Below are positions 39,932-56,952 of a stretch of 56,952 nt of DNA, one piece after another. The stretch spans positions 11,360-68,311 of the forward strand of contig CAZSNS010000003.1 in the NCBI GenBank assembly GCA_964608515.1, given 5' to 3'. This DNA is from Candidatus Hadarchaeota archaeon. Lineage in GTDB: Archaea > Hadarchaeota > Hadarchaeia > Hadarchaeales > JAGGTB01. Numbering within the stretch: the first letter of the stretch is position 1; the number at the start of each line of letters is the position of its first letter. Both the position numbers and the translations under genes were made by a program. A model generated the notes under the pieces. The model was not told where the DNA came from and searched no databases. It saw nothing but the letters and a program-made list of their open reading frames with translations.

Positions 39932-39963
39932 GATAGAATCGGTTAGGATTAGTTAGGATTCAA

Positions 39964-39996
39964 GGTCCAGTCCCAAAAAAAGGTCCAACTCAGGTC
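39964..39996 (+). repeat. GC-rich motif copy E, ending 5 nt before ATG 40002 of the giant ORF
   Basis: ggtccagtcccaaaaaaaggtccaactcaggtc. Confidence 0.75.
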
Positions 39997-40001
39997 ATAA
40001 A

Positions 40002-43000
40002 ATGCCCAACTCAGATGGGGAAACCCCAGTTAATCAGTCGGTTAGGCAAAACGCTTACCCCAGCCAGGAGAATGTCTTTTTCTCCGTAATTATAATCATT
40101 TTATTCTCAATATCAGGTTCCATAGGTTTTCTTTTCTTTTCCCATGCTGGGCTGGGCGGACTGGACCGTGGAAACCCGACCCAAAGTGACTATCTCGAAG
40201 ACGAGACCAATGAGATCGGTGCAGGTGTGGAGAACGTTGGAGACCCGACTTTGTTAGATATGTTCGGTGTTTTCGTAGATCATATGACAGGTGGCTCGCT
40301 TGGAGCTGGATCTGAATTTGGAAAAGATTTAGATATACAAGTGGAAGAACATCTCATTGCTGGAAACCCTGGGCCACCTGTTCTACAAATAGGACGAATG
40401 AATCAGGATTCTAGCTCCCCTCTCTCTGGGGGTTTGAGGGCGGAGCTGGATGGAGAGATTGAGGATTACTACCTTGGAAAGACTAGTACTGATCCTGATC
40501 CAGGTCCTGGTACAACTTTGATGGCTAATGGTAGCACTATGGGATTGTGCGATTTAACGGGACTTTGGGAAGGTTCCTATATGGGAATAAGTGGAAGTGG
40601 TCCTTCTCCTGTGGGTGATGGTACCAGCTACGATACCCTCACCCTTGGCCCCTTAGGCCATATCAATTTTCATAGCGGTCAATTAGGTGTCAACGTTGAA
40701 GACCCAATGAAGCTGCAATGGTTCACCCACATAACGCTAGACAGTTTAGTAATAGAAGGATTAGGCTACCCACTAGGACAAATAGATTCCAGACTTATCG
40801 ACAGCTCATGGCCAGCAGACAATGACTCTGGAGGAATGCTCGGCACCATGATTTTAGAAAGAGCTGAAATCAACTACCTAAATATTCACCTTCAAGAAGA
40901 TTTCGGCATGAGCATGATGGGTCAAAAATTCAACTTCGACGAACTAGAAATGGAATCCAACAACCTACTAGTAAAACACATGGGACCCGAACCCGGTGTT
41001 AACTGGGGGGACCCTCCAGAAGTTTCACACCCGGCAGCTTTCGGCCCAATGAAAATAGAAATCGTGGACGTAGGCCAATTAGACTTGAAACATTTGAGGA
41101 ACTTCAACGTCGACATTTCTGAAGTCGGAGTAGGTCTAGACGATTTGAGTTTGAATATGGACACCCTAAATATTAGAAATATATGGTCCGAAAGCATGGA
41201 GTTTGAAAAATTTGACATGAACAAACTAAACATAGGCCTACAAGGTTTAAACATAGACTCCGGAGCAAACGTTCCAATACCTCTCATGGGCACCCAAAAC
41301 AAACAACAAGTAGACCTTAAAAACCTTGACATGGGTTTGAACAACCTACAACTAAGAAATATGAGCGGACTCACAGCCATGGAAAGTGGCCACTTCGACT
41401 CATTTGTTATAGAAAATGTGAAAGATCTAAGAACAAAACTCCCGACCGAATTCACAGAAACTTGGAACGAAGAACAAGACTGGTTCAAAGGCACATCACA
41501 AAAAACTAGAGGTCCCAATGGCTCCCTCCGGCTAGACACAAATACTGTATGGGAAGGAGCATTGTGGTTTGATTCTGACGGAAGCAGCCTCACCACAACC
41601 CCACCCAACAATGAACAAACCGTACAATTTTACAGCGGGGATGGTTGGCCTCATAATTATGGTTGGCTCGATGAGGTTTATGTCTCTGGTGGATCGGATA
41701 TTCTCGTTGAGGAAGATGATAAATGGATAGCACAGTTGAAGGGACCCGGAGGTTTCTTTGATAAGGGCGTGACTTCAATGAGGGGAGAATATGCTCATAA
41801 GTGGACTTATCCTCATGAAGTTGAAATTGATCCTTCAGCTGGAGAGGATCTTGTAGTGGAGTACAAGGCGTCTGCGTCACTTCATGGAAAGACTAACTCA
41901 TCGAATACTTACAATTTCACACTAGACAGTTCCGATGTGCCTAGTGGCGCTCGGATTATCGAACCGACTTCATGGGATATCCACACTGAGCTTTATGGAA
42001 ATAATTATTCTGATATTACCATAACCGTATTGGGCATCGATTATGATACGGGTACTGGTGGAGGGTCTTGTGATCTTTATTGGAAATATGGGGATAAGGA
42101 TACGGCACCGTCGAGGATTGAAAATGTAAAATTTGCTTCCGGTTACTATGATAGTGGAACTCACACTTCAGAATGGCGAGATATGGGTGGAAACGTTGTT
42201 TGGGAAAATATACAAGTAAATGCCGGTATTCCAGCTGATACAAATGCTACAGCTGTAATTATTTCAAGTGAAGACGGAGCAAACTGGACCGATAGTAAAG
42301 CCATAGACTTACAAGACGGAAGTCATACCTATGACCTATCTGATTTAGAACCAGCTAAATACTTACGAATAGTGACCAACCTTTCAACTTCAGATCCCCT
42401 AAAAACCCCTAAGGTTCATGAATATAACGTGAATGCATCTACTAAACGGTGGGGTGGTCAATTAGCTCTTTATCTAGATAATCTTTCCGTTAATCTGACC
42501 AATCTGGATTTAGAAGAAATGAAAGGTATGAGTTGGGACAAACTCAACTGGGACGACTTGAATGCAGGTATAGACGATATTGATTTACTCTCTGCTTATA
42601 ACCAAAAAAACGTCTCTGGCTCTTTCAGCAGTTGGAAAGATCTCGACCAAGAAGATTGGATAAACTACTTAGAATCTAACTCTACACTCTCCTCAGGAGA
42701 CAGAGCAGCAGCAGTAATCAAAGTGGATAACAATACTGACCATACAACGATAACGGACACCACCGTCAGAGCACTAGACGGAGGAAAAGAAAGATTTGAT
42801 ATACAAGCAAAACCAGTACTTAATTTCGACGGCTCTGGTGATTATGGGGCAATTCAAGACCTACACTATGATACTGCGGGGGGAATATCGGAAATAACGG
42901 TAGGAGCATGGGTAAAAACGACCAGTTCGGACTATCAAATAATCTCATCTTATGATGCCAACGAATATTGGAGATTCGCCATAGGGAGTTCATGGGATGG

Positions 43001-46000
43001 AGCAGGAAGTAAGGGCTACCCAGCTTGGATAACGGCGAGCAATGGTGCAGGAAACCATAGCATGGTTGGAAACACGAAAGTCAATGATGGTGAATGGCAC
43101 CATTTAGTTGCAACTTATGATTCTTCCACTGGAGAGATGGGACTGTATGTGGATGGAAAATTAGATGCCACAGCAGAACCATATCCTGACGGAACAAACT
43201 TAGGAACGGGAACAACTAGATACGGATTCATTGGAACCGGGTCAGAAGCGTCCGGTTATAACGGTACTGTGGGTCCGAGTGAATGGATGAACGGATCACT
43301 CGATGATTTATATATTTACAACAATGCGCTTACAGAAAACGAAATCCAATCCATTTACAACAAAGACAAGTACATTCAAAACAATTTAGTTGGATATTGG
43401 CCTTTGGATGAGAGTCAAGGCGATAGGGCTTATGATTTATCCGGAAACAATAATCGGGGAGTCCTTCAAGGAGATCCAGAATGGGGGATAAGGGATAAAC
43501 CGAGTCTAAAAGACCATCAATACTATAAAGTCGACACGAAGGAGGATTGGTGGGATGTTGACCGTTATTTGTTATTTTCCGGGAAAGGGTCTCTTAGAAT
43601 AAATAATCTCGACATAAAACTTCCAAATGTGAGAGTTAATGACCCTGGAAAAGTGTTGACTTCTTGGAAAAGCCTAACTTCGGATAACGCTGTGATAGAA
43701 GTTCAAGACATACAAGCAGACACTCGAGGAATCGAATACAATATGAACGACCTCCTCGCCAACTGGACCGGTTTCAAATCCTCAGTTGACCGAGTCGGTT
43801 TAGGACCAGTTGTGAGCTGGGCTGTGGGTTCTGAATCCGAATGGGAAAAAGGTGTTATGGATAATGTGGAAGCGGATTCGCCAGAAGGCGAGTTAGAACT
43901 CGGATATCGCGACGGAGATTCAAAAGAGGGTCTTACCAGTTATTGGAGGTTCGACAAGGAAGAAGGAAGTGTGAAGGATTACTCAGGAGAAGGTAATAAC
44001 GGAACAAACTACGGTGCATCAAGAGGAGAAGTAGGAATTCTCGGTAGCGACGCTTTCTACTTTAACGGTTCAAATGATGATTATGTTCAAAGCACAGACT
44101 CAGTTCCCGTTCCTAGTAACGGTGCAATATCAGTTTGGATAAACGGTGAAATGGGCTCTCAAGTCAGTCAAAATATCTATCCCGCAGGATTTTATAAAGT
44201 ATGTCTTTTAGGACCATCAAGTGGTTCAAGTGGTAGAAGTGGACTCATAGCTAGGAATAGTGGGAGCAATTATTATTGGGATTGGGGAGATCAGAACATT
44301 TACAACGGTCAATGGCATCACTATGTCGTTACGTGGGATTCTTCGAACATTTATCTTTATTTAGACGGTCAACAAATTGGAAGTCCAAAATCTCACAATA
44401 ATAACATACCTTTTGGGGATTATAGAACTATCAACGCAGGAACAGCTTGGTCCAACGGCGGATATGGCCCCCACACAGGAAAATTAGACGAATTTCAAAT
44501 ATATGATAGACATCTTTCAGGTCAAGAAATAAAAGATCTTTATAAGAATCAAAATGGTTCTTTCCAGTCAACAGTACATGACTACGACAGAAAAGTATCA
44601 TTTAACAGTTTAAAAACCTCTTCAGTGCTGAACCCTTCACTCAAATTTGATGGGACTAGTGATTATGTTGGAATTCCTAATGATGCGAGTTTAAATCCAA
44701 ATAGTATTACAGTATCTGCTTGGGTAAGTTTAGAAAATGTTGGAAGCGGGTATAATGGAATCGTTGACAAAAGGTACAATGAAACTTATGCTTTATATCA
44801 GGATTCCGGTGATAAGGAATTTAATTGGTACGTTACGACAACTGATACTTCGTCATCTCTCAGGGATATAAGTTTGAATTTGGATGAATTCCACCACATA
44901 GCAGGTACTTATGATAGTTCTACGGGAGAGATGAGAGTATATAAAGACGGTAACTTGATCAAATCCACTACTATAAGTGGAAATCTTGCAAGTAATACTG
45001 CAAATCTTTATATAGGACTCCGGAAATCAACGGGGGATGTTTGGGATGGTCAAATAGATGATGTTCGAATCTATAATCGCGCCCTATCTCAAACCGAAGT
45101 TGAAGACCTTCACGAAAATCAACACATAACTAACGGACTCGTCGGTCATTGGCCATTCGATGAGGGTGGGGGTACAACAGCTTATGACGAGGCTTCTAAC
45201 AGCAATAATAATGGATATATTCATGGTCCTACTTGGAACTCGAATTCTTGGAATCCTAACACCGCAATCTCTGCACAAGTGGAGGTTTCGGACGATCCGA
45301 ATCTTAATTTCGATGGTTCGAATGATTATGTAGAAGTTCCAGATGAGGATTCTCTGGATATTACTGACAGGATAACTATTGCGGGATGGTTATATCTACG
45401 GAAAGATCCGGCACAGTGGAAAGGAATTGCGATGAAAGGAGGTTTCGACCCATATGGCGTATTGCTAGAAAGCGACTCAAGAGGACTTTCAGGTTCCGTC
45501 AACATCAGAGGTCAAAGACAGAAGCTGGACTCAAACTATGACCCTTCTAATATGGTTGGAAAATGGACACATTTCGTTTATACTTATGACGCTGGTTCAG
45601 GAGAAGCTCGAATTTATGTGGACAACCAACAAAGAAACAGTAGTAATTCTTTCGAAACAGGATCGATAGACATAGACCAAGACCCCCTAATCATCGGTGC
45701 CGAAGACGCTAACGGAAATCGGAGTTTTCCCGGAAAAATAGACGACCTTAAAATATATAGACGAACTCTAAACGAAAACGAAGTTTCCGACCTATACGAA
45801 AACAAACCAGTCCCACAAGGTCTTGTGGCCTCATGGTCATTCCAAAATGGTGTTGGAACCCGAACTGCAAAGGATGGGTCTGATTTCTCCCACGATGGAA
45901 CAATCCACGGCGCGAAATGGGACATGATAGTCAAAGGAACCAAAAATATTCCCGCTAGTGAAATACATGGCGGAACCGAATCTCACGGTCTTGGAGGTCT

Positions 46001-49000
46001 TCCAGAAGCCCAGTATGGAAGAGTTAAATTCGACCTCTCTAGCAATAGTATTGAAAAGTCACCCTCAATCCGAAAATTCTCCACCGATGTGAGTGCCGGA
46101 ATTATGGCGCAATGGGAGAGATTAGCCCTAACTGGAAAGGAATTACACTTTGAATTTAAAGATGATCTATTTGTAGAAAATCTAGGTCTTGAAGAGTTGG
46201 AATTAGGCCCGGTGAGTTTGGATAATTTAGAGATGGAAAGTTTAGGTTATGATTCAAACTGGATGTATGGAACTCTTGAAAACGGTGGAGTGGTTTCTGA
46301 TGATATGAAGATAAAAGGATTATTCGATATTCTCGGACCCTCGGCAAGGTTTGATAATTTCATCCTCCATCGAGATAATTTCCACGCTTTTGCGAACACA
46401 TTTTCCGCTAGAGGATTAAAATTCCGAGGAGAAAACGTGTTAGATAACTTTACAGCCAGAAACTTTGATTTCGTTTGGGAAAATTTCCATTACCAACTTG
46501 AAAAATTCAAGAAAGAAACATTCGACGCATCGGATTGGAAAGTGTCCTCTACAGAAGAATGGGATGCGGGGAATAAAGCTGACACACGAGCAGTGAGAGA
46601 TAGCCTACGGCTGGATACCAAGACAAAACATGCGGAGTGGAGATCAACTTCTGATTGGGAATCCGGATCAGGTAATAAGTACTATGTAAGATATGGGGAG
46701 TTAGGAATCGGATTCTACGACGACTTTGAAGATGGTTTATCCAACTGGAGTCCTCTCGGCGGAAGCAGCTGGACTACCACCTCCGAGGGTGAACTGAAAG
46801 CTACAAATGGAGGAGTGATAGTTTATGATGATCCGAATGTTGATTCAAGCTCTCTAGCTGATTCTACAATTAAAACTAGGACGGAAATGAAGGGAGGAAA
46901 CACCGGTATAGCCACGAGAGTCGAAGACTCTAGTAATTTTTACACACTCTATCTAGATAACGGCGGGAATATAGCTCGTCTAAGAGAGCGCTCTGGAGGG
47001 TCGTGGCAGTGGACACGGTCCGAAAGTGCCAATTACTATGAAAATACACTCTATCCTTTGAAGTTCGTAGCAAAAGGGAACAGTTTGGTCAGTAAAGAGG
47101 AGTCTAACGGTGTATTTCTTAATAACAGCGACTCAACCCATTCGAGCGGATACGTCGGTGTATATACTCCAAGTTCAGGAGCTTATTATGATGACTTTTG
47201 GCTACAGGGAGGGTACGGCTCCGCTACTTATAGGACGGAGTGGCGAGAGTTTGATAATGATGCGGCGCTTAAGACTCTCTCTGCAGATACGGTAATTAGT
47301 CCGAATCAGGGCATTACCGCTACAGTTCAGGTTTCTTCTGACGGTTCGACGGTAGCAGATTCCGTGGATAGGGTTTTGAGGAATGGTAAGAATTACTATG
47401 ATATTTCCGGATTGGCTGATGACTATCCATATGTGAGAGTCGTGTTGGACTTGAACACCAGCGATACTACTCTTTCACCGAGGGTTAAAAGCATTGGAGT
47501 TACTGAGAAGTCCGCTGAAACGTGGAAGGATCGAAACGAGTGGGCTGCAGGAAGGTTCGGTTTAGGGTCTACCCCATTCCATGAGCCTGGAAAAGAGTTG
47601 CTCTGGTCAGCTACGTCAGACTGGCGAAAAGGGTATACAGAGACGTTTGAAGATGGAGATGTCTCGGATTGGAATTTCATTTATAATGACAGTGATCCCC
47701 AGACGGGTCTTACTGACAGTCACTGTAAGGGTAGGTATGGGTTGAGAGTTGATGGGGACGATATTGCGGTATCTCCCAAGCTGGATCTCTCAGGGATGAG
47801 CGATGTAAGTATTACTGCTTATATGGATGTTTGGAGTATGGACGATGCCAGCGAGGATGGACATTTGGACTTTTATGATGGGGGTAGTTGGCACACGATT
47901 AATTCCTACCACAATGAAGACGGCAAATTCACTTACGACATTCCAGATGATTGGCTAAGCCCCAATAATAAGATAAGACTTCGCCTTGTCGGCGGGAACG
48001 GTGGAGGAGACCACGGAGTCGTTGACGAAATTTATATAAACTCCTTACATGGATTGACTGCTTTCGGTGGAAAACTAGAGTTAAAACAACTTGTACCCGA
48101 ACCGAAATTCGACGGTTGGGATTGGGACTTTTGGGACTCCGAATCTGGGGACTTAGATGAAGGTTATGCAAGTTATAGAGGATCCGGCGACAGTAGACAT
48201 GCCGAATTTCATGCAAGGACATCGACTGGTACTTGTTGGTGGCCTCCTACCGGTTGTGATAGCAGCGGTTCTCACCAAGGTTACGCTCAAGACTCTTTCT
48301 ACGTAGAGGACGCTTCTTTGGATAAGGAATTGAAATTCTGGTACGATGGTAGTGGGGGTGGTGACGGCGTGCCTACTCTTAGGATTAAGATCAATGATCA
48401 GCAAAGTTCCGGTTGGGGTTCACCCACCTATTCTAATGCTGTATCAGGTTCGGGTTCGGGCACTGTTACTTGGGATGTTACGAGCGCCTTTTCGTCACCA
48501 GGTAGGTATTATGTTCGGATTCGTACTGATATTAGCGTAGCAGCGTCGACTGGGTGGTTTGGTAGCGATTCTGATGAGTTCACATGGCAGGTGGATGACC
48601 TTTACATTTCTTATACGGAAGGAAAACACGTAACAGCTTGGCAGGATATGGGAGCTACTGTCGATTGGAATTATCTTAACTACCAAACCTCGATAGCTGG
48701 CGGAGAGGGTATAAATACAACGATAGAGGTAGATGATGACTCCAGACATCTTTCCGGAGTGTCATCAACTAAGCTAGGATTAGCTGACGGTTCATACGAG
48801 GAAGATCTCTCCAAACTCAAAGACGGAAAATATATAAGAATGATATCCAAGCTTTCTTCTTCTAATACACCAAATTCACCTACTCTCAGTAGGTATGAAA
48901 TCACATACGACACGCCCGAAGTCACGTCTTTAAAATCTCAAGACCTAATTGGTTTCTGGAAGTTCGAAAGCCCCGACGATGAAAAAGTTTTCGACGAAAC

Positions 49001-52000
49001 AGACTACAAAAATAATGGTAAGATTCGACACGAAATAGAATTGACCAGCAATTCAGAATGGTCACCTACCATTTTCTCATTTGACTATAATTCGGATACA
49101 GGTTCAAGCTCCCACGCCCATATAAGAAATAGCAAAGTTTCACTTGGAATTTATCCCCCAGAGCCCAGATTTGATGGATCGAATTGGGATTTCTCGGGCA
49201 GCACCACCGATTCATACGGGTACTCTGGGAATCGAGGACATTGGAGTTCAAGCCTGTCGGGAGGAGACCCGTGTCATCCTGTAGATAAAAGTACAAGCGA
49301 TGACGGTTACGCAGAGGATAGTTTCTATGTCGATGTTGATGATGTCGGTGATGAGACTATATCTTTTGACTGGGAAGCAAACATATGGAATAATGATGGG
49401 GATGACAGTGCTTCAGGTAGTCTAACGGTTGAACTTATAGATCCGGGCGGTAGCGTAATAGCTTCTGGTAGTACCGGAACAAAATCCAGCGACGGTACTG
49501 GAACTGTGACATTTAACGTTAGTTCTTCGGATTGGTCAGGTTCTGGAACCTATACAATACGAGCCCACGCGCATATAGACTTATCACTCCACGTTAACAC
49601 CGGTAATAATGACTCAGTAGGAATGGAGTGGTACGTTGACGGTGTTTGGCTAGGATTTGACTCCGGATGGCACGAAACACCATGGACGGACATGGGAGAG
49701 GACACGCCTCTGGGTGGTTTAGAAGCAAAAGCCAACATTGGTAGTGGGGATTCGATAAGTGCAACAATATATACCGACCCTGATTCCGATCACTCTAATG
49801 GAAACGAATCTTCGGTAAACGTAAACCTTTCTAACGGGACAAGTTGGCATGATATCTCGTCCTTAGCCTCCGGTCGGTACGTGAAAGTCAGGACGGATTT
49901 GTCGACCGATCGGAATTGGAGTAACGTTTCAGAGGTGGATTATTATGACATTTATACAGAAAAACCCTCTTATGAACATTGTTACGTGAGGAATAATAGT
50001 GTAGGGATTGGGGTCTACCCGGCAGAACCCGAGTTCGACAGTAATAATTGGACTTTTGGACAGAGTGGAAGTAGTGGGACCGCTAAGTATAGGAATGAAA
50101 AGGCTTACTTTTATTCAGGTGTCGGTTGCGATGCTACTGTAGGGTCGTGTAGTGACTCAAAAAATTGGTATGGTTATTCGGAAGACCAGTTCTATATCGA
50201 TACTCTGGGTATGAAAAACACTCAAACTCTAACTTACGACTGGGATGTGGACTCCAATACTCATGGGGATGGAGACGCTAATATTAATCAATCTAAACTC
50301 TGGATTTATCTTGAAACCCCCAGTGGTACTACGCATCTTCTAGACTCAGTAGATACGAACAATGGCTCCCAGAATGATAGATCTGTGAACATACCTGACT
50401 CGTATTGGGAAGTTTCCGGTCAGTACAAGATTCGAATGAGAGTAAGAATAGACACCGACGTAGATGTAGGCTTGCTTGAAACGAATGCTGCTGCTGAAAG
50501 TAGATGGTATGTGGACGATCTTAGAATCGGTTTCACTTCCGGTCAGCATGATACCGCTTGGAGAGACTTGGGTGAAACCACTGAACTAACTGATCTCAGA
50601 GCGGACGCTACCATTACACCTGGGCAATCAATTGATGCAACGGTGACAGTTGATTCCGATTCCGATCACAGCACTGTAGATGGTTCGACCACTGTAAGTC
50701 TAAGTGATGGGGATCATTTATTCGATATAAGCTCTCTTCCCTCCGCCCGATACGTACAAATCCAGACAAACTTCACAGCCAATTACCAGTACCCGAATAA
50801 GGCAGAGCTCCACTCCTATCAACTTATGGGTAATCCAGCTGGAGATAAGAAAAAATCAGGAAAATACGGCAATGCTATTGAACTTGACGGGGTTAACGAC
50901 TTCGTAAGGATTCCAGACGATGCCAGTCTTGACGTCACTAGCGAAGTCACCGTTTCCACCTGGATGAATATAGACAGTTATCCCAGTTCAGATAGTGCTA
51001 TTCCGTTAACTCACGGAGATTACGACGATTCTTGGTGGCTTGAACTCTACTCCGGCGGAGAATTAAGATTTTATGTAAATACAAATAACGGTCTCCGGAA
51101 AGCAATAATCAACAACGTATCCAGAAACCAGTGGGTTCACATAACCGGAACATATGACAAAGAATCAGGCCAGATAAGCGTTTATAAAAACGGTAAAATC
51201 CAAGATACGGTAGCACATTCCGGTCCTATAAAAACAACCTCAGCCCCTCTATATATGGGTAAAGGATTCGGATCAGGCTATGGTTCCAAATACTACGACG
51301 GTAAACTAGACGAAGTAGAAGTCTACAAAAGAGCACTAGCCGAAAGTGAAATCTCAGAAAAATGGGGCTTCTACACACACTGGCCATTCGAAGGAAAAGG
51401 AACGGGCAGAGCGTTCGACGCCCAAGGCAAATATGACGGAACAACCTCCGGAGGAGTTTCTTGGGTAAATGGCGGAGTTCATGGAAAGGCGTTAAAATTC
51501 GACGGGTCTGACGATTATGTGGCTGTTGATGATTTGGTTTATGACTCAACTGGAGCTATCGGTGAAATAACTGTTGCAGGATGGATTAAAACCAGTTCAA
51601 CCGATGATCAAGTAATAGCTTCATGGGACAGGGATGAATATTGGAGCCTCAACGTTGGAAGAAAGAGCTCAAACAACGAAATTACTTGGAGCACCACTAG
51701 CTCAGATGGAACAACCCATGATATGATCGGAAACACAGACGTGGATGATGATACATGGCACTTCGTGGCTGCCACCTACAGTGCTGTGACAGGCAAGAAA
51801 AAGATTTACGTGGACGGTGAATTAGATGCAGTTACACAACCTTATTCACCCGGAATACAGTTAGGAAAAGGAGAAGAAACGAGATACGGATTCATCGGTG
51901 AAGGATCTGAAGCTTCTAACTTTGACGGCGGTCGAAACAACAGTCTTTACTTTAACGGTTCCATAGACGAGTTAATGTTATTCTCTAAGGCTTTGAATTC

Positions 52001-55000
52001 TTCTGAAATGAAGAAATATATGAATCTCTACGGCGGAACGGACCTCAGCGAATATAAGAACATTAAAGAAGGATGGAGTCGAACTTCTTGGCGCGACTTC
52101 GGGCGAGAGGTGGCATGGAGCGAATTCATATCAGACGTAACAATTGAACCAGGACAAGCCATATACTCCACAGTGGATGTCACCAATCCGATTTATGAAC
52201 CTACTAGCTGGTGGACGATGGACGACGCCCACACCAGAGACAACACTCTCAAAGATTACTGGTCATCCTATGACGGCGAAATAAATGACGCTTCTCCAGG
52301 ACACACAGGAGTGTTTAACCAATCTTATAACTTCGACGGGACGGATGATTGGATTAATTGTGGCGATATAAACGTCCTTGACTCTTCATCAACCTTCACC
52401 ACCAGTTTATGGTTCAAAAGAGAAATAGATCAATCAGATGATTCAAACCATGGCACCAGTAATGTCATGTTTGCAAAGGCTAGCGATAGTGCTAATGATA
52501 TTATCGAAATAGGAACTGAAGGAAGTAATATAGAGATTTATTTAGACGCGATCGGAAATAATAAAATGGAAAGTTACAACGCAGGTATAAATAACAACCA
52601 ATGGTACCATCTTGCACTGACTTACGATAGCGGAGTAGTTAAATTATACTTGAACGGAGCCATGGTGAAGGAATGGACCGGCTGGGGCAGTCAACTAGAT
52701 GATGCTGGAAGTAGTCCTGTGACTCTTGGCAAAACCCACCATTCAGATATATACTTCGGCGGTCTAATCGATGAAGTCATGGTCTACGACAAAGTCCTCA
52801 AACATGGAGAAATACAAAAAATCAGAAACAAGATCAGAAACAAAGAAATTCGAGACAGGCAAGAATTCAGACTAGAGCACGGTCCTCACTCTCACTTCAT
52901 CCAAGAGATGTCGCCTGGTCGATACGCAAGAGTCACCACGAAAATGAGTTCAAATGACACAAGAAAATCACCATCGGTTAACAGTTATACGATATGGGAA
53001 GCTCCAACCTACAAGTCGCAAGGAAGTTATTCTATAACTCGGGATTGGGTGATGAGACGTGAATATACTGATTTTGGTGTTTCAAGTACTCTTCCTGAAA
53101 ATACTAACGCTTCTCTAGAGATACAAGTGAGCAATGACAAATCTAATTGGAATACGATCGGGAGCGACTCCGATTTAAGCGACGGATTTACTAAGATTGA
53201 ACTACCGAGCACTGCGGGTAGGTACTCTAGGGTCAAGTTTGATTTGTCCACTCAAATAGAGACTAGGACACCGGTCATTAATTACTTCACTATACGTTCT
53301 CCTGGCGGTAGCACTGTCAAGTGGCTTGAGGATAATCTGCATTGGGATAGGCTTGAAATGAACTTGGAACATTTTGTCGGTTTCAATGATGTTCTGAATG
53401 AGAACGCTGTCGAAACAATGACACTTGGGAAAGTGGACTTTTTCGACAAACTGCGGGTTGAAAACAATCTCATAGAGTTAGAAAACTTCCACTATTTAAT
53501 AGAGAACTATGATATAGTCTCAAGGGATGTATACCTTACCAATCCTGGAATAACTGATGTGTTAATGGAACAAATAGGAGATATGGGTTGGGATTATAGC
53601 GAACTGACGTGGGAAAACTTCACCTTCTCCCACGATAACATTTATGCTTATATAAAAAGCTTATCTGCAGAAGATTTGCCATTCCTCTCTGCTGGAACAT
53701 TAGGACTGGACAATCTAAAAATGGAAAACACGGTAATAAACTCTACAGACTTCCTATTCAATCTAGAAAACCTCTATTTCCTATCGGACAACGTGTATAT
53801 AGAAAATGTAGGAGTCAACGACTGGGTATACGAATCAATGGAAAACATGGGTTGGGACAACGGACAATGGGACTGGAAATTCTTCAATCTAAGAAACGAC
53901 CACCTATACGCAGATTCTGCCTATATGGACCAAGACGACTTACCCATCGGAGTCCCAGTAGATAATCTCGAATTAGAAAATCTAAAACTAAGCACAAAAG
54001 ACTTCCAATTCCGCTGGTGGAAACTAGCAGTGTGGTCAGATAACATAAACATGCACGAACCAGGCCTGCAAGACGTCCTAAAAAACTTTATAGAAAACAT
54101 GAAATGGCGCTACTCCCGACTCGACTTAGACAATATTTACGCAAAACACGACCGCTTCTACACTTCCTTAGAAAACATGACCCAAGAAGACATTCCGATG
54201 GATGTACCGATGTTTGACAATATAAAAATGGAAAACCTAGAAGCAACCTCCAAAAACTTCCTATATAACTTATTAGATCTGCGAGTCATAGCAGAAAACG
54301 TCAGACTCAGAACACCAGGCCTCACAGACGTTCCGATGGCTTTCATAGAAGAACTAGGCTGGGACAACAGCAGGCTAGAATGGGAAAACCTAGAAATAAC
54401 TAATGACTACCTCTGGACTCATGCAGAAAACCTAACCAAAGACGAAATACCTGCCGAAATACCGTTAGAAAACTTCCGAATCGAAAACCTAGAAATAACA
54501 TCAGAAGATTTCCTAGCCAACCTAATAGATCTACTATGGAAATCGAAAGGTGTTAACTCCGTGGAAAACCTTATCGCAGAATGGAAAATGGACGAAGGCG
54601 AAGGAAGTATAGCAAATGACACAGCGTATCAAAATGACGGACAACTCAAAAACGGTCCGGTATGGGATAACGGGTACTATGGAAACTCACTAAAATTCGA
54701 CGGCTCTAACGATTATGTCGAAACACCAGATGTAGTAGGTGGAGAAAACGAGATAACAATCAGCACATGGGTCAATCCCAAAGACTTTGAATCTCAAGAT
54801 AAGACAGTCGTGGGAACTTGGGGCACCCAAGAATTAACGTTATGGTATGATGTAGGAATGGACAATTGGAGCCTAATTGTTCACGACACCAATGGAAATA
54901 ATGTAAGAGTCAACGGAGGAAACCCACAAACTGGCGAATGGACACACTTGGCTGGAACATACAAGGACAACGAAAAACTAGAACTTTACATAAACGGAAC

Positions 55001-56952
55001 AAAAGTTGCCACCACAAATGCTCAAGGAAACCCAATAAACGATGGTGCTTCTTGGTTTGGAATAGGTTACGACTCCGCACACAATCACTGGAACGGAAAA
55101 ATAGACGAAGTCAAAATATTCGAAAGAGCTCTAAACGAAAATGAAATAGAAAACCTATACGTGGGAGACCCACCAAAAGGATTAGGACTCTTAAACTCAA
55201 TCATCGCCGACCCCTATATAAGCTGGGACAATCTAGACCTCGGAATCTCGCTAAAAACCCACGCAGATAAAATCTATGGACACTCCGACAACCTTACAAA
55301 AGACAACCTCTCGAGCCTACCCATAAGCATACCAACGGAAAAATTCCAGATTGAAAACTTCACACTCAACCTAGAAAACCTAAACGTAGGAATAATAGAC
55401 CTACTACTATCCTCCGATAATGTCACCTTACACACCATAAAACAATTCGGACCAGTCCTAGAAAACATTCGAAACTCCCTTAACATATCTTGGGAGAACA
55501 TCTATGCATCTCTAGAAAACACTAAAACCAGTTTGGATAGGTTGTATGCATTTTCTGAGAACTTGGATGGGGAAAACCTTTCTTCCGGCACATTTGGATT
55601 ATTTAGCGTTCCATTAGAAAACTTCTGGATGGAGAACTTCAATCTTAATTCCTGGAATACTTCATTCGGTCTGGAAAACTTCGGTTTAAGATTTGAAAAC
55701 GCTAGATTGGATAATTTAGACAATACGAAGAGTATGTTGGATAATGTTCTCAACTCATTTAAATACGTTAAATGGGATAACCTAAGAGCTGCCACTGAAA
55801 ACACTAATTTGCAAATAGAAAGGATTCATGGGGAAGACGATAATCTTACAAAAGAGAATTTGGAATCCTCATCCCTTGTACCATTCGACATACCAATGGA
55901 AACCTTATGGATTGAAAACTTAAAACTAGATTCAACTGACACCCGCATATCTATAATCGATTTCCGCATCCGATCAGAAAACTTGAAACTTGAAAATCTA
56001 AATAATACATCAGGCATTCTAGAAAACGTTTTGAATTCCATAGCCTTCATCAAAACAGACAATCTAAAACTCCAAAACTCTTCCAATGTTCAAGCCGACC
56101 ATTTCCACACATATTCGGAAAATCTACAGCAAGAAAATCTCGGAATAGAAATAATGGATAACTTATGGGTGGAAAATCTTGAGATAGAAACAGACTTCTT
56201 TAATGCAGGTTTACTCAATCTCGATCTTTTCTTTGAAAACATGCGGATCGAGAACGCTTCCGATACACAAGGAATGATTGAAAACATTTTCCAAAACATG
56301 ACCGCAGAATGGGAAAATATTTGGATGAATATAGAATCCGGAAGTTCTATCTTCGATAGACTCCGAGGATATTCAGAAAATCTCACACGAGATAATTTAC
56401 CCTTCGAGATAACTCCAGACGTATTTTGGATCAGTGATATCCAGATAAGAGCAGATAATGCGGATGGAAGATTAGAAAACTTCAAATTATCTTCCCGAAA
56501 TGTCCGAATAGAAAATGTGTCAGACCTTAATAGCACTATTGGAGAAGTCCAAGAATCTCTCAGATTAAGCTGGGACAATATCAATGCTAATTTAGAAAAT
56601 AGTGACCTCGAATGGAATAGACTCCACATGTTCGCTGATAATGTTACTGAGAATGATTTGCCTGTTGATCTTGGTTTGGATAATTTCATAGCTGAAAATA
56701 TTGAGGTTGATGTCGAGGACTTTAGTTCTTGGTTGGATAACTTTGGATTGAGGTTTGGAGAGTTTAGAATTGAGAATCTTGATAATACTTCTGGTATTTT
56801 GGATAATGTGAAGGATTCTTTTGAAGTTTTACGTTGGGATAATGTTGACGCTAATATCAGGGCGGGTGGTCTTGATTTTGACAGTCTTTATGCTGCTGCT
56901 GATAATGTTACTGAGAATGATTTGCCTGTTGATCTTGGTTTGGATAATTTCA
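40002..56952 (+). CDS. Giant surface protein (at least 5,650 aa, 3'-truncated by the window): N-terminal signal anchor, at least 8 LamG domains, recurring beta-sandwich-like modules, Asn/Leu-rich ~88-aa repeats
   Basis: In the frame with codon starts divisible by 3, the last upstream stop is TAG 39954-39956 and the first start is ATG 40002. I hand-translated 40002-43500 and 53280-56951 with no stop, and read the rest by eye. The track lists no + ORF in this frame, which it would if any stop existed. N-terminus: MPNSDGETPVNQSVRQNAYPSQENVFFSVIIIILFSISGSIGFLFF. Confidence 0.85.
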   Translation, partial: MPNSDGETPVNQSVRQNAYPSQENVFFSVIIIILFSISGSIGFLFFSHAGLGGLDRGNPTQSDYLEDETNEIGAGVENVGDPTLLDMFGVFVDHMTGGSLGAGSEFGKDLDIQVEEHLIAGNPGPPVLQIGRMNQDSSSPLSGGLRAELDGEIEDYYLGKTSTDPDPGPGTTLMANGSTMGLCDLTGLWEGSYMGISGSGPSPVGDGTSYDTLTLGPLGHINFHSGQLGVNVEDPMKLQWFTHITLDSLVIEGLGYPLGQIDSRLIDSSWPADNDSGGMLGTMILERAEINYLNIHLQEDFGMSMMGQKFNFDELEMESNNLLVKHMGPEPGVNWGDPPEVSHPAAFGPMKIEIVDVGQLDLKHLRNFNVDISEVGVGLDDLSLNMDTLNIRNIWSESMEFEKFDMNKLNIGLQGLNIDSGANVPIPLMGTQNKQQVDLKNLDMGLNNLQLRNMSGLTAMESGHFDSFVIENVKDLRTKLPTEFTETWNEEQDWFKGTSQKTRGPNGSLRLDTNTVWEGALWFDSDGSSLTTTPPNNEQTVQFYSGDGWPHNYGWLDEVYVSGGSDILVEEDDKWIAQLKGPGGFFDKGVTSMRGEYAHKWTYPHEVEIDPSAGEDLVVEYKASASLHGKTNSSNTYNFTLDSSDVPSGARIIEPTSWDIHTELYGNNYSDITITVLGIDYDTGTGGGSCDLYWKYGDKDTAPSRIENVKFASGYYDSGTHTSEWRDMGGNVVWENIQVNAGIPADTNATAVIISSEDGANWTDSKAIDLQDGSHTYDLSDLEPAKYLRIVTNLSTSDPLKTPKVHEYNVNASTKRWGGQLALYLDNLSVNLTNLDLEEMKGMSWDKLNWDDLNAGIDDIDLLSAYNQKNVSGSFSSWKDLDQEDWINYLESNSTLSSGDRAAAVIKVDNNTDHTTITDTTVRALDGGKERFDIQAKPVLNFDGSGDYGAIQDLHYDTAGGISEITVGAWVKTTSSDYQIISSYDANEYWRFAIGSSWDGAGSKGYPAWITASNGAGNHSMVGNTKVNDGEWHHLVATYDSSTGEMGLYVDGKLDATAEPYPDGTNLGTGTTRYGFIGTGSEASGYNGTVGPSEWMNGSLDDLYIYNNALTENEIQSIYNKDKYIQNNLVGYWPLDESQGDRAYDLSGNNNRGVLQGDPEWGIRDKPSLKDHQYYKVDTKEDWWDVDRYLLFSGKGSLRINNLDIKLPNVRVNDPGKVLTSWKSLTSDNAVIEVQDIQADTRGIEYNMNDLLANWTGFKSSVDRVGLGPVVSWAVGSESEWEKGVMDNVEADSPEGELELGYRDGDSKEGLTSYWRFDKEEGSVKDYSGEGNNGTNYGASRGEVGILGSDAFYFNGSNDDYVQSTDSVPVPSNGAISVWINGEMGSQVSQNIYPAGFYKVCLLGPSSGSSGRSGLIARNSGSNYYWDWGDQNIYNGQWHHYVVTWDSSNIYLYLDGQQIGSPKSHNNNIPFGDYRTINAGTAWSNGGYGPHTGKLDEFQIYDRHLSGQEIKDLYKNQNGSFQSTVHDYDRKVSFNSLKTSSVLNPSLKFDGTSDYVGIPNDASLNPNSITVSAWVSLENVGSGYNGIVDKRYNETYALYQDSGDKEFNWYVTTTDTSSSLRDISLNLDEFHHIAGTYDSSTGEMRVYKDGNLIKSTTISGNLASNTANLYIGLRKSTGDVWDGQIDDVRIYNRALSQTEVEDLHENQHITNGLVGHWPFDEGGGTTAYDEASNSNNNGYIHGPTWNSNSWNPNTAISAQVEVSDDPNLNFDGSNDYVEVPDEDSLDITDRITIAGWLYLRKDPAQWKGIAMKGGFDPYGVLLESDSRGLSGSVNIRGQRQKLDSNYDPSNMVGKWTHFVYTYDAGSGEARIYVDNQQRNSSNSFETGSIDIDQDPLIIGAEDANGNRSFPGKIDDLKIYRRTLNENEVSDLYENKPVPQGLVASWSFQNGVGTRTAKDGSDFSHDGTIHGAKWDMIVKGTKNIPASEIHGGTESHGLGGLPEAQYGRVKFDLSSNSIEKSPSIRKFSTDVSAGIMAQWERLALTGKELHFEFKDDLFVENLGLEELELGPVSLDNLEMESLGYDSNWMYGTLENGGVVSDDMKIKGLFDILGPSARFDNFILHRDNFHAFANTFSARGLKFRGENVLDNFTARNFDFVWENFHYQLEKFKKETFDASDWKVSSTEEWDAGNKADTRAVRDSLRLDTKTKHAEWRSTSDWESGSGNKYYVRYGELGIGFYDDFEDGLSNWSPLGGSSWTTTSEGELKATNGGVIVYDDPNVDSSSLADSTIKTRTEMKGGNTGIATRVEDSSNFYTLYLDNGGNIARLRERSGGSWQWTRSESANYYENTLYPLKFVAKGNSLVSKEESNGVFLNNSDSTHSSGYVGVYTPSSGAYYDDFWLQGGYGSATYRTEWREFDNDAALKTLSADTVISPNQGITATVQVSSDGSTVADSVDRVLRNGKNYYDISGLADDYPYVRVVLDLNTSDTTLSPRVKSIGVTEKSAETWKDRNEWAAGRFGLGSTPFHEPGKELLWSATSDWRKGYTETFEDGDVSDWNFIYNDSDPQTGLTDSHCKGRYGLRVDGDDIAVSPKLDLSGMSDVSITAYMDVWSMDDASEDGHLDFYDGGSWHTINSYHNEDGKFTYDIPDDWLSPNNKIRLRLVGGNGGGDHGVVDEIYINSLHGLTAFGGKLELKQLVPEPKFDGWDWDFWDSESGDLDEGYASYRGSGDSRHAEFHARTSTGTCWWPPTGCDSSGSHQGYAQDSFYVEDASLDKELKFWYDGSGGGDGVPTLRIKINDQQSSGWGSPTYSNAVSGSGSGTVTWDVTSAFSSPGRYYVRIRTDISVAASTGWFGSDSDEFTWQVDDLYISYTEGKHVTAWQDMGATVDWNYLNYQTSIAGGEGINTTIEVDDDSRHLSGVSSTKLGLADGSYEEDLSKLKDGKYIRMISKLSSSNTPNSPTLSRYEITYDTPEVTSLKSQDLIGFWKFESPDDEKVFDETDYKNNGKIRHEIELTSNSEWSPTIFSFDYNSDTGSSSHAHIRNSKVSLGIYPPEPRFDGSNWDFSGSTTDSYGYSGNRGHWSSSLSGGDPCHPVDKSTSDDGYAEDSFYVDVDDVGDETISFDWEANIWNNDGDDSASGSLTVELIDPGGSVIASGSTGTKSSDGTGTVTFNVSSSDWSGSGTYTIRAHAHIDLSLHVNTGNNDSVGMEWYVDGVWLGFDSGWHETPWTDMGEDTPLGGLEAKANIGSGDSISATIYTDPDSDHSNGNESSVNVNLSNGTSWHDISSLASGRYVKVRTDLSTDRNWSNVSEVDYYDIYTEKPSYEHCYVRNNSVGIGVYPAEPEFDSNNWTFGQSGSSGTAKYRNEKAYFYSGVGCDATVGSCSDSKNWYGYSEDQFYIDTLGMKNTQTLTYDWDVDSNTHGDGDANINQSKLWIYLETPSGTTHLLDSVDTNNGSQNDRSVNIPDSYWEVSGQYKIRMRVRIDTDVDVGLLETNAAAESRWYVDDLRIGFTSGQHDTAWRDLGETTELTDLRADATITPGQSIDATVTVDSDSDHSTVDGSTTVSLSDGDHLFDISSLPSARYVQIQTNFTANYQYPNKAELHSYQLMGNPAGDKKKSGKYGNAIELDGVNDFVRIPDDASLDVTSEVTVSTWMNIDSYPSSDSAIPLTHGDYDDSWWLELYSGGELRFYVNTNNGLRKAIINNVSRNQWVHITGTYDKESGQISVYKNGKIQDTVAHSGPIKTTSAPLYMGKGFGSGYGSKYYDGKLDEVEVYKRALAESEISEKWGFYTHWPFEGKGTGRAFDAQGKYDGTTSGGVSWVNGGVHGKALKFDGSDDYVAVDDLVYDSTGAIGEITVAGWIKTSSTDDQVIASWDRDEYWSLNVGRKSSNNEITWSTTSSDGTTHDMIGNTDVDDDTWHFVAATYSAVTGKKKIYVDGELDAVTQPYSPGIQLGKGEETRYGFIGEGSEASNFDGGRNNSLYFNGSIDELMLFSKALNSSEMKKYMNLYGGTDLSEYKNIKEGWSRTSWRDFGREVAWSEFISDVTIEPGQAIYSTVDVTNPIYEPTSWWTMDDAHTRDNTLKDYWSSYDGEINDASPGHTGVFNQSYNFDGTDDWINCGDINVLDSSSTFTTSLWFKREIDQSDDSNHGTSNVMFAKASDSANDIIEIGTEGSNIEIYLDAIGNNKMESYNAGINNNQWYHLALTYDSGVVKLYLNGAMVKEWTGWGSQLDDAGSSPVTLGKTHHSDIYFGGLIDEVMVYDKVLKHGEIQKIRNKIRNKEIRDRQEFRLEHGPHSHFIQEMSPGRYARVTTKMSSNDTRKSPSVNSYTIWEAPTYKSQGSYSITRDWVMRREYTDFGVSSTLPENTNASLEIQVSNDKSNWNTIGSDSDLSDGFTKIELPSTAGRYSRVKFDLSTQIETRTPVINYFTIRSPGGSTVKWLEDNLHWDRLEMNLEHFVGFNDVLNENAVETMTLGKVDFFDKLRVENNLIELENFHYLIENYDIVSRDVYLTNPGITDVLMEQIGDMGWDYSELTWENFTFSHDNIYAYIKSLSAEDLPFLSAGTLGLDNLKMENTVINSTDFLFNLENLYFLSDNVYIENVGVNDWVYESMENMGWDNGQWDWKFFNLRNDHLYADSAYMDQDDLPIGVPVDNLELENLKLSTKDFQFRWWKLAVWSDNINMHEPGLQDVLKNFIENMKWRYSRLDLDNIYAKHDRFYTSLENMTQEDIPMDVPMFDNIKMENLEATSKNFLYNLLDLRVIAENVRLRTPGLTDVPMAFIEELGWDNSRLEWENLEITNDYLWTHAENLTKDEIPAEIPLENFRIENLEITSEDFLANLIDLLWKSKGVNSVENLIAEWKMDEGEGSIANDTAYQNDGQLKNGPVWDNGYYGNSLKFDGSNDYVETPDVVGGENEITISTWVNPKDFESQDKTVVGTWGTQELTLWYDVGMDNWSLIVHDTNGNNVRVNGGNPQTGEWTHLAGTYKDNEKLELYINGTKVATTNAQGNPINDGASWFGIGYDSAHNHWNGKIDEVKIFERALNENEIENLYVGDPPKGLGLLNSIIADPYISWDNLDLGISLKTHADKIYGHSDNLTKDNLSSLPISIPTEKFQIENFTLNLENLNVGIIDLLLSSDNVTLHTIKQFGPVLENIRNSLNISWENIYASLENTKTSLDRLYAFSENLDGENLSSGTFGLFSVPLENFWMENFNLNSWNTSFGLENFGLRFENARLDNLDNTKSMLDNVLNSFKYVKWDNLRAATENTNLQIERIHGEDDNLTKENLESSSLVPFDIPMETLWIENLKLDSTDTRISIIDFRIRSENLKLENLNNTSGILENVLNSIAFIKTDNLKLQNSSNVQADHFHTYSENLQQENLGIEIMDNLWVENLEIETDFFNAGLLNLDLFFENMRIENASDTQGMIENIFQNMTAEWENIWMNIESGSSIFDRLRGYSENLTRDNLPFEITPDVFWISDIQIRADNADGRLENFKLSSRNVRIENVSDLNSTIGEVQESLRLSWDNINANLENSDLEWNRLHMFADNVTENDLPVDLGLDNFIAENIEVDVEDFSSWLDNFGLRFGEFRIENLDNTSGILDNVKDSFEVLRWDNVDANIRAGGLDFDSLYAAADNVTENDLPVDLGLDNF
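40005..40014 (+). repeat. GC-rich motif half-site E2 (codons 2-5 of the giant ORF)
   Basis: cccaactcag, 21 nt downstream of the same decamer-like arm in copy E. Confidence 0.5.
40144..40170 (-). repeat. GC-rich motif copy F (inverted, compact), inside codons ~48-57 of the giant ORF
   Basis: + strand atgctgggctgggcggactggaccgtg; reverse complement cacggtccagtccgcccagcccagcat. Confidence 0.6.
42819..43360 (+). other. LamG/ConA-like (Laminin_G_3 type) domain 1 of the giant ORF
   Basis: LNFDGSGDYGAIQD ... DGEWHHLVATYDSSTGEMGLYVDG ... GSLDDLYIYNNALTENEIQSIY. Confidence 0.8.
44055..44545 (+). other. LamG-like domain 2
   Basis: FYFNGSNDDYVQS ... NGQWHHYVVTWDSSNIYLYLDG ... GKLDEFQIYDRHLSGQEIKDLY. 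Confidence 0.75.
44640..45113 (+). other. LamG-like domain 3
   Basis: LKFDGTSDYVGIPND ... EFHHIAGTYDSSTGEMRVYKDG ... GQIDDVRIYNRALSQTEVEDLH. Confidence 0.8.
45303..45797 (+). other. LamG-like domain 4
   Basis: LNFDGSNDYVEVPDE ... GKWTHFVYTYDAGSGEARIYVDN ... GKIDDLKIYRRTLNENEVSDLY. Confidence 0.8.
48090..50826 (+). repeat. Three tandem ~270-aa coding supermodules (48090-48912, 49149-49958, 50013-50826)
   Basis: Each starts (L/I/V)(V/Y)P(x)EP(K/R/E)FD(G/S)xxW(D/T)F, has ..GY(A/S)(Q/E)D(S/Q)FY(V/I)(E/D).., and ends in a W-module: H(V/E/D)T(A/P)W(Q/T/R)D(M/L)G ... (K/R)Y(I/V)(R/K/Q). Confidence 0.75.
50877..51365 (+). other. LamG-like domain 5
   Basis: IELDGVNDFVRIPDD ... NQWVHITGTYDKESGQISVYKNG ... 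GKLDEVEVYKRALAESEISEKW. Confidence 0.8.
51492..52023 (+). other. LamG-like domain 6
   Basis: LKFDGSDDYVAVDD ... DDTWHFVAATYSAVTGKKKIYVDG ... GSIDELMLFSKALNSSEMKKYM. Confidence 0.8.
52326..52830 (+). other. LamG-like domain 7, apparently nested inside a W-module
   Basis: YNFDGTDDWINCGD ... NNQWYHLALTYDSGVVKLYLNG ... GLIDEVMVYDKVLKHGEIQKIR. Confidence 0.75.
53322..54560 (+). repeat. Asn/Leu-rich ~85-90-aa coding repeat array, part 1 (units U1-U5)
   Basis: Unit anchors (Trp of W-D/E-N or equivalent) at 53322, 53589, 53853, 54105 and 54360, giving periods of 267, 264, 252 and 255 nt. Confidence 0.8.
54690..55160 (+). other. LamG-like domain 8, splitting the ~88-aa repeat array
   Basis: LKFDGSNDYVETPD ... 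TGEWTHLAGTYKDNEKLELYING ... GKIDEVKIFERALNENEIENLY. Confidence 0.8.
55224..56952 (+). repeat. Asn/Leu-rich ~85-94-aa coding repeat array, part 2 (units U6-U12; the last is cut by the window end)
   Basis: Anchors at 55224, 55491, 55773, 56055 (T instead of W), 56310, 56571 and 56835, giving periods of 267, 282, 282, 255, 261 and 264 nt. 55 nt are identical between 56634-56688 and 56898-56952. Confidence 0.85.

Follow-up and report, generated by a model that had tools for sequence, protein, structure and literature searches.

The stretch of DNA analysed here (hereafter, the window; 56,952 nucleotides (nt) of contig CAZSNS010000003.1 from an assembly of a Candidatus Hadarchaeota archaeon) ends inside a giant gene on its plus strand, of which it holds the 5′ 17 kb. 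The gene is real but incomplete: its available part encodes 5,650 amino acids (aa), and the whole product, of more than 600 kDa, belongs to the already described class of archaeal huge proteins rich in the Laminin_G_3 domain. The reading we favour, with a confidence slightly above even, is that this giant protein is an N-terminally anchored, multivalent glycan-binding adhesin or surface fibre, as predicted from its anchor, its domain content and its surroundings.

The reading frame of the giant gene opens after a TAG at 39954–39956, and its first start codon is the ATG at 40002, with no ATG, GTG or TTG in between. In-frame translation from this ATG to position 56951 gave 5,650 codons and zero stops, in agreement with an earlier interpretation of the same DNA (the sequence-only reading), which had described a frame open from this ATG to the end of the window. 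At the base composition of the window, the probability of a stop is about 0.0695 per random codon, and 5,650 open codons would be expected by chance with a probability of about e^-407, or about 1e-177; across the entire window, no other frame stays open for more than 815 codons. The list of open reading frames (ORFs) on which the sequence-only reading drew does not contain the giant frame. A recount over 39932–56952 matched the description given of that list, yielding 24 minus-strand ORFs of 62–229 aa and three off-frame plus-strand ORFs of 61–68 aa. ORFs running off an end are left out of the list, and the sole reason for the absence of the giant frame is that it runs off the window edge. ORF tracks that drop edge-open frames hide the largest genes, and the largest genes tend to terminate contigs at their own repeats.

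Base composition along the gene is consistent with coding in this frame throughout, since the GC content of first codon positions exceeds that of third positions (GC3) in 17 of 18 blocks of 900 nt, with a marginal shortfall in the block at 53502 (0.48 vs. 0.46). The giant gene has a GC content of 42.5% and a GC3 of 0.39, compared with 33–43% and 0.26–0.36 for the other genes of the window; its GC content is the highest among them with the sole exception of the TFB gene (ORF 11558–12559), which equals it at 42.6%.

The encoded protein contains one hydrophobic segment, at aa 24–47, where the Kyte–Doolittle hydropathy over 19 aa reaches its maximum of 2.44, versus no more than 0.98 elsewhere in the 5,650 aa. 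The product is acidic (isoelectric point of 4.39), rich in Ser, Asp, Gly, Asn and Leu, and has only 11 Cys residues. Its modules (Table 1) were positioned with hidden Markov model (HMM) profiles built from the protein's own copies, and the LamG domains were located by Pfam as well. This resulted in eight LamG domains, eight copies of a module of about 95 aa designated mod95 (six whole and two split), three domains of about 170 aa designated X, and 14 Asn/Leu-rich units of about 82–93 aa, 12 of them strong and two degenerate. Each X domain is directly followed by a mod95 copy, and the pair forms a supermodule of about 265 aa. The sequence-only reading had proposed an N-terminal signal anchor, at least eight Laminin_G_3-like domains, at least eight copies of the ~95-aa module, three supermodules of ~270 aa and at least 12 Asn/Leu-rich repeats, all of which were recovered in this analysis.

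Table 1. Modules of the giant protein and other mapped features of the window (all on the plus strand; residues refer to the giant protein)
Feature	Residues (aa)	Window positions	Strand	Basis or remark
Giant ORF, 5,650 codons, open at 3′ end		40002–56952	+	No in-frame stop; truncated by window/contig end
Transmembrane-like segment, signal anchor or uncleaved signal	24–47	40071–40142	+	Kyte–Doolittle
N-terminal ectodomain, loosely Asn/Leu-rich stretches	48–715	40143–42146	+	No Pfam match at E ≤ 1
mod95 copy 1 (~95-aa beta module)	716–810	42147–42431	+	Internal HMM, 115 bits
First split mod95, N-half and C-half	874–935; 1985–2026	42621–46079	+	Model positions 6–67 and 54–95
LamG 1–4 and linkers, between the halves of the first split mod95	935–1120; 1347–1515; 1541–1705; 1763–1933	within 42621–46079	+	Pfam PF13385/PF00354, internal HMM
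Two degenerate Asn/Leu-rich repeats	2022–2172	46065–46517	+	Asn/Leu HMM, 52 and 44 bits
Beta-rich stretches flanking mod95 copy 2	2173–2404; 2501–2698	46518–48095	+	No Pfam or PDB match
mod95 copy 2	2405–2500	47214–47501	+	mod95 HMM, 101 bits
Supermodule 1: X jelly-roll and mod95	2699–2870; 2871–2967	48096–48902	+	Internal HMMs, alignment
Supermodule 2: X and mod95	3053–3218; 3219–3317	49158–49952	+	AlphaFold2 model, Foldseek
Supermodule 3: X and mod95	3341–3510; 3511–3607	50022–50822	+	Internal HMMs
LamG 5 and 6	3620–3789; 3825–4008	50859–52025	+	Pfam PF13385, internal HMM
Second split mod95, N-half and C-half	4022–4065; 4273–4331	52065–52994	+	Model positions 2–45 and 39–97
LamG 7, nested in the second split mod95	4103–4276	within 52065–52994	+	Internal HMM
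mod95 copy	4337–4431	53010–53294	+	Internal HMM, 91 bits
Asn/Leu-rich array 1, five ~85-aa units	4432–4848	53295–54545	+	Asn/Leu HMM, 52–93 bits; Pfam gives only a sub-threshold DUF3737 match
LamG 8	4891–5054	54672–55163	+	Pfam and internal HMM
Asn/Leu-rich array 2, seven ~88-aa units, last cut by window end	5059–5650	55176–56951	+	Asn/Leu HMM, 63–95 bits
Exact 55-nt repeat, first copy		56634–56688	+	100% identity; second copy 56898–56952
Four co-oriented upstream genes, secreted/anchored products		33290–39931	+	Pfam; N-terminal hydrophobic segments

The LamG group alone was recognised in the giant protein by Pfam, with Laminin_G_3 (PF13385) scoring 312.6 and 327.5 bits (cut-off 27.6) in four plus four stretches; the Pentaxin and Laminin_G_2 matches overlap those of Laminin_G_3. 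The LamG domains occupy about 24% of the length and all named modules about 68%. Pfam matches are lacking for about 76% of the protein, considerably more than the half without a nameable family that had been estimated earlier; ten unassigned segments, tested separately, stayed without a match even at E ≤ 1. No PDB sequence match was obtained for aa 48–715. Two labels of the sequence-only reading, ConA-like for 46.7–47.2 kb and MAM-like for 47.64–48.05 kb, had to be abandoned, because neither region has a Pfam match (E ≤ 1) or a PDB sequence match (E ≤ 1), and the internal LamG and X profiles gave no score in either.

The two split copies of mod95 are best read, on the basis of the coordinates of the profile matches, as cases of domain nesting, in which LamG domains were inserted in mod95 loops. 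About 1,050 aa with LamG 1–4 lie between the halves of the first split copy, and in the second one LamG 7 lies between model positions of about 45 and about 39. So read, the giant gene would be a clear case of such nesting. The Asn/Leu-rich repeat, mod95 and the X jelly-roll represent three orphan module families, and one or more of them may be new folds.

Supermodule 2 was modelled with AlphaFold2 over aa 3040–3317, using a five-row alignment of internal copies. The model, with a predicted local distance difference test score (pLDDT) of 73, consists of two all-beta sandwiches. Its closest neighbours among PDB structures according to Foldseek were an alpha-1,6-glucosyltransferase with CBM-like domains, a tandem CBM22, CBM61, the MAM region of meprin, and GH2 sugar-binding domains, all of them weak matches of a generic jelly-roll kind (E ≥ 5.6e-5, TM-score ≤ 0.27); among viral models, tail-fibre, minor-tail and baseplate proteins were found. 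The model thus fits sandwiches of a carbohydrate- or receptor-binding type, and no family was assigned. Profile searches of the PDB with the mod95 and Asn/Leu alignments returned only noise (E ≥ 0.07). For the Asn/Leu-rich repeats the only Pfam signal was a sub-threshold match to DUF3737 in one of six segments (E 1.3e-4 in one scan; 17.5 bits versus a cut-off of 23.9 in another), and an identity of these repeats as leucine-rich repeats or a right-handed beta-helix was rejected, since no significant profile match was found.

The same structural neighbours also bear on another role, that of a substrate-capture scaffold for polysaccharide use, in which CBM-like modules would hold a polymer at the cell surface for nearby hydrolases. 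The window encodes a GH31 protein, two sulfatase-family proteins and a TrmB sugar regulator, which together with the CBM22, CBM61 and GH2 sugar-binding domains among the nearest folds speak for such a scaffold. However, these fold matches are weak, no catalytic, dockerin or cohesin domain was detected in the 5,650 aa, and the GH31 protein has no obvious signal sequence in its listed N-terminus, so that we regard this explanation as improbable.

Relatives of the orphan modules proved to be extremely rare. A word-indexed search of 5.8 billion protein clusters returned no match for the N-terminal 930 aa, the Asn/Leu profile or the supermodule profile, and peptide-pattern scans of viral and metagenome contigs revealed no relative. 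An exhaustive HMMER search with the Asn/Leu profile against 1.84 billion representatives produced seven hits at E ≤ 1e-3, and the sequences of the five top-scoring ones were inspected, the remaining two having E values of 1.4e-4 and 4.0e-4. Four of the five inspected hits were rejected as relatives: one is a large surface-repeat protein of bacterial origin, and the other three are repeat proteins of a low-complexity or coiled-coil kind. The only true relative among these five is P0001, a protein of 312 aa (E 3.8e-21) composed of an N-terminal tail, a transmembrane (TM) segment and about 2.5 Asn/Leu-rich repeats. Its gene (L022, positions 939–1877, plus strand) is located beside a Hef-like helicase fragment on a 1.9-kb contig with a GC content of 38.7% from Logan SRR11308167, and ends 26 nt short of the end of that contig.

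The mod95 module was found in one other gene of the window. The mod95 profile matches the C-terminus of the product of ORF 18888–20324 (minus strand; E 8e-20), and also its orthologue beside the O-phosphoseryl-tRNA synthetase (SepRS) gene in the closest Hadarchaeota metagenome-assembled genome (MAG) (L001, 4643–5281, minus strand; 58% identical over the aligned part). Therefore, mod95 is a lineage-specific extracellular module and not private to the giant gene. The product of ORF 18888–20324, with a length of 478 aa, begins with an AbrB/MazE-type (SpoVT) domain, which is followed by a charged linker, a single TM segment and an outer region that ends in mod95; it resembles a regulator that is tethered to the membrane and bears a sensor domain at the surface. 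A mod95-like C-terminus of the protein encoded at 38564–39931, which had been a visual impression, was not confirmed by the HMM, and no giant ORF was present in 21 loci around SepRS.

According to the favoured reading, the segment at aa 24–47 would hold the giant protein in the cytoplasmic membrane, and everything beyond aa 47 would be extracellular. The arrays of ~88-aa Asn/Leu-rich units would serve as spacers or a stalk and alternate with clusters of beta-sandwiches formed by the eight LamG domains, the eight mod95 copies and the three X jelly-rolls, with LamG domains nested in mod95 loops. Such a large number of lectin-like domains would allow multivalent attachment to glycans or glycoproteins, carried by other cells, by particles or by the cell's own envelope. 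We infer the role of an adhesin or matrix protein from the membrane anchor, the known roles of LamG domains, and the jelly-roll or CBM-like predicted folds with their weak structural matches; the topology and the binding of ligands are likewise predicted. The presence of one anchor with no further membrane segment, the eight LamG domains, and the tandem jelly-roll modules, the latter predicted with moderate confidence, support a giant adhesin or surface fibre. A position at the cell surface is further supported by four neighbouring genes for secreted or anchored proteins with a glycan-assembly cluster beyond them. The favoured reading also draws on P0001, which shares the layout of a tail, a TM segment and Asn/Leu-rich repeats, on the frame open over 5,650 codons, on the nearest structures of supermodule 2, on the acidic and Cys-poor composition with its 78 N-X-S/T sequons, and on a sub-threshold match of the LamG domains to TafC.

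Several observations weigh against this reading. The region preceding the hydrophobic segment (the n-region) is net acidic, so the orientation of the protein is not settled by the positive-inside rule. The structural matches of supermodule 2, with TM-scores of at most 0.38, are generic for jelly-rolls. An AlphaFold2 model of two Asn/Leu-rich repeats was unusable (pLDDT of 33), which makes their role as a stalk a guess. The giant protein carries 78 N-X-S/T sequons, which is no enrichment over the 71 ± 8 of shuffled sequences, and the idea that N-glycosylation sites are enriched was dropped for this reason. Finally, a catalytic domain, a toxin domain or a second anchor may lie in the unassembled C-terminus.

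One could also hypothesise, as a rather unlikely extension, that the ~88-aa Asn/Leu-rich unit adopts a repeat fold that is new and confined to a narrow Hadarchaeota lineage, and forms the stalk of a branched 'lectin tree' with LamG arrays nested in mod95 loops, the mod95 module being present also on an AbrB-type membrane-tethered regulator in the same genome. If true, this would point to a dedicated system of surface recognition and signalling, and would suggest that archaea generally regarded as free-living in the subsurface live attached or depend on a partner.

Known giant surface proteins provide a further basis for evaluating the adhesin reading. In a UniProt survey, Laminin_G_3 was by far the commonest domain in archaeal proteins of at least 5,000 aa and was present in almost all of them, the function of these proteins not being understood (PMC11573180). 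The giant protein is archaeal, longer than 5,000 aa, has PF13385 matches above the gathering score with Laminin_G_3 as its sole recognisable Pfam family, and is predicted to act in adhesion; it shows all the features of this class. On the other hand, it has eight LamG domains, while the commonest architecture of the class includes one N-terminal copy, and the remainder of the protein is made of modules without detectable relatives. A literature search on the phylum turned up no comparable giant of Hadarchaeota.

Giant LamG proteins of Nanohaloarchaeota are extracytoplasmic, expressed, and thought to mediate attachment (PMC6642349, PMC7443923). The SPEARE proteins, which are expressed and extracytoplasmic, share LamG as adhesion domain (PMC6642349), as do the organism-specific lectin-like giants of nanohaloarchaea (PMC7443923). 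Like these, the giant protein described here is mostly extracytoplasmic by prediction, has a single TM anchor, LamG domains and an organism-specific sequence, and comes from a small-genome archaeon; outside LamG, it has no sequence relationship to them. Since an organism-specific sequence is the rule for LamG giants, the lack of relatives of the orphan modules is notable but not exceptional. SPEARE proteins are characterised by at least one laminin-G domain plus other adhesion domains, by a serine protease in the ectodomain, and by an intracellular type III restriction-enzyme-like domain beyond a C-terminal TM segment. The first of these features is represented by the eight LamG domains, whereas Pfam and NCBIfam scans of the 5,650 aa revealed no serine protease, and no restriction-endonuclease or toxin domain is present in the available part, the C-terminus being unassembled. 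The absence of protease and nuclease domains from this part and the N-terminal position of the anchor led us to reject SPEARE membership.

These data also bear on whether the giant protein could carry an effector in a contact-dependent manner, as do proteins of the SPEARE or polymorphic-toxin type, with an enzyme or toxin domain in the unassembled C-terminal part. SPEARE proteins, with lengths of 6–8.5 thousand aa, do join LamG adhesion domains with protease and nuclease domains (PMC6642349), and the C-terminus is indeed missing from the assembly. Nevertheless, no protease, nuclease or toxin family was detected in the available 5,650 aa, and the anchor is N-terminal, while most SPEARE proteins are anchored near the C-terminus, which leaves this explanation quite improbable.

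TafC, the tip adhesin of haloarchaeal Tat-fimbriae, faces outward with its LamG domain, for which an adhesive potential has been proposed (PMC11821415). The TafC model NF052521, the only NCBIfam family matched, scored 118.8 and 103.7 bits with the giant protein, and its best stretches cover model positions 119–362, which is roughly the LamG half; these are sub-threshold matches of the LamG domains to the C-terminal laminin-G-like half of TafC. The giant protein differs in lacking a TafA-like donor-strand domain and a twin-arginine signal, and in being membrane-anchored instead of a pilus subunit. Membership of the TafC family was rejected, as the scores are far below the cut-off of 410.

Among bacteria, giant repeat adhesins of the RTX/BAP type are represented by LapA, SiiE and MpIBP. 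These too are very long surface proteins whose repeat arrays carry the ligand-binding domains to a distance from the cell, but they belong to a different domain of life and differ in the mode of anchoring. Pfam and NCBIfam scans of the available giant protein, the C-terminal end of which is missing, detected no BIg, cadherin or RTX repeats and no features of type I secretion systems; in the absence of these repeats, an identity as an RTX/BAP-type adhesin was rejected.

The giant gene deserves attention on account of its host phylum, the fraction of a small genome that is devoted to one gene, its nested architecture, and an Asn/Leu-rich repeat with essentially one relative in 1.84 billion representatives. 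Hadarchaeota genomes have sizes of about 1–1.5 Mb, and a large Hadarchaeota contig comprises about 1.03 Mb. In such genomes, a gene of at least 17 kb means that more than 1% of the coding capacity is spent on one surface protein, which argues that attachment matters for these uncultivated subsurface archaea; conceivable targets of attachment are a partner cell, a particle and a polymer.

The 3′ boundary of the available sequence coincides with a repeat. The last 55 nt of the window are 100% identical to the DNA located 264 nt, or one 88-aa repeat, upstream, while the sequences just before the two copies are only about 45% identical. This is the sole exact repeat of at least 30 nt in the entire window, and the giant ORF upstream of 56634 contains none. 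Other DNA repeats inside the giant ORF are 60–85% identical, and the paralogous modules of the protein share 25–48% identity at the protein level. The end of the window is probably an assembly break, and thus the end of the contig. An island of exact 55-nt identity that ends with the sequence would be the trace of a de Bruijn assembler meeting a repeat at k = 55, and the 264-nt unit between the copies may have been collapsed from several identical tandem copies. The exact 50-mer from the end of the window had no match in genome and metagenome contig collections, and a look-up of the protein encoded by the upstream neighbour of the giant gene likewise yielded no record. Since the contig breaks inside the terminal repeat, the C-terminus of the giant protein and the number of terminal repeats are not recoverable from this assembly.

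A repeat-driven mis-join or mis-assembly within 40002–56633 is unlikely, because the module repeats are only 60–85% identical in DNA and no exact repeat of at least 30 nt is present there. Mis-assembly of the repeat region had been named by the sequence-only reading as a possible refutation; it is the terminal 55-nt repeat that marks an assembly break.

A further feature of the giant gene is the composition of its third codon positions, which switch in blocks between T/G-rich and A/C-rich codons. The ratio T/(T+C) in two-fold codons is 0.31 over aa 4530–5130 and reaches 0.82–0.85 over aa 541–720 and 5545–5650, and in the blocks of the A/C type NNC and NNA codons are much more frequent than in any class of genes in the window. 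Profiling of the keto/amino skew (G+T vs. A+C) at synonymous sites revealed that it is patchy on a scale of 0.3–1.8 kb within single genes across the whole window, for example at 21.6–22.2 kb (GH31), at 12.7–13.6 kb, in many blocks of 40–57 kb, and in the Tyw1-like gene. Measured over 400 nt at a time, the skew has a spread of 0.115 versus 0.051 after shuffling, which is about twice the expected value. The mosaic composition was dropped as a sign of chimerism or foreign origin, because the GH31, Tyw1-like and other genes are equally patchy.

It could still be supposed that the giant gene is an artefact, either a chimera into which the assembly joined several genes with repeats or a pseudogene whose product is never made, given that the contig breaks in a repeat, the third-position composition is patchy along the gene, and the proteins of the window did not turn up in the public protein and contig collections that were searched. 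We consider this very improbable: a single frame is open over 16.9 kb, the same module families recur throughout that one frame, no exact repeat of at least 30 nt upstream of 56634 was available to mislead the assembler, and the patchiness, seen in GH31 and other genes of the window as well, is not specific to the giant ORF.

The genes surrounding the giant gene point to an archaeal host. The window encodes an archaeal FEN-1, the tetraether lipid synthase Tes and SepRS, all scoring above equivalog cut-offs, along with TFB, a Tyw1-like radical SAM protein, a TrmB regulator and PCMT. With that of a Candidatus Hadarchaeota MAG, its SepRS shares 78% identity; the values are 55–58% for ten other Hadarchaeia and at most 49% for the Jord-, Bathy- and Asgard-group archaea. 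Based on these markers and identities, the region is an ordinary part of the chromosome of a Hadarchaeota archaeon.

Immediately upstream of the giant gene, four co-oriented genes encode a weakly DUF3108-like protein, a PQQ beta-propeller, a beta-helix/NosD protein with an InlB B-repeat, and an unassigned protein of 455 aa. Each has an N-terminal hydrophobic segment, in line with the island of four other secreted proteins that the earlier interpretation had noted. Further upstream lies a cluster of the surface-glycan type, comprising GT4, two sulfatase-family proteins, a B12-radical SAM protein, a Wzx/MurJ-like flippase, GT2 and GH31, to which a polyprenyl-phosphate transporter also belongs.

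This neighbourhood is relevant to one more explanation, in which the giant protein would be a structural part of the envelope or matrix. It would either form a coat comparable to halomucin or organise the glycocalyx or S-layer of the cell itself, with lectin-like domains that bind self glycans of the surface. Adjacency to an assembly cluster with GT2, GT4, flippase, polyprenyl-phosphate transporter and sulfatase-family genes is consistent with such a role, as is an acidic, repeat-rich and membrane-anchored product, and halomucin is a precedent named in PMC6642349 and PMC11573180. Since no mucin-like Ser/Thr/Pro tracts and no match to an S-layer family were found in the 5,650 aa, and multivalent LamG arrays are more often tied to the binding of external ligands, we consider a structural role unlikely.

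Other features of the neighbouring genes were also observed. The polysaccharide flippase of the Wzx/MurJ type appears to be split in two adjacent minus-strand ORFs, 23913–24836 and 24888–25448, of which the upstream one corresponds to the N-terminal Polysacc_synt part and the downstream one to the C-terminal MurJ-like part; the split could be due to a frameshift, a pseudogene or a sequence error. Between the flippase and GT2 genes and the GT4 gene, the plus-strand region 25643–30670 encodes the B12-binding radical SAM protein, an unassigned basic protein of 250 aa (27484–28236) and the two sulfatase-family proteins, which together may modify surface glycans or lipids. Elsewhere in the window, the minus-strand ORFs 13604–14614 and 14679–15848 are adjacent paralogues with signal-like N-termini and a DUF5667 domain.

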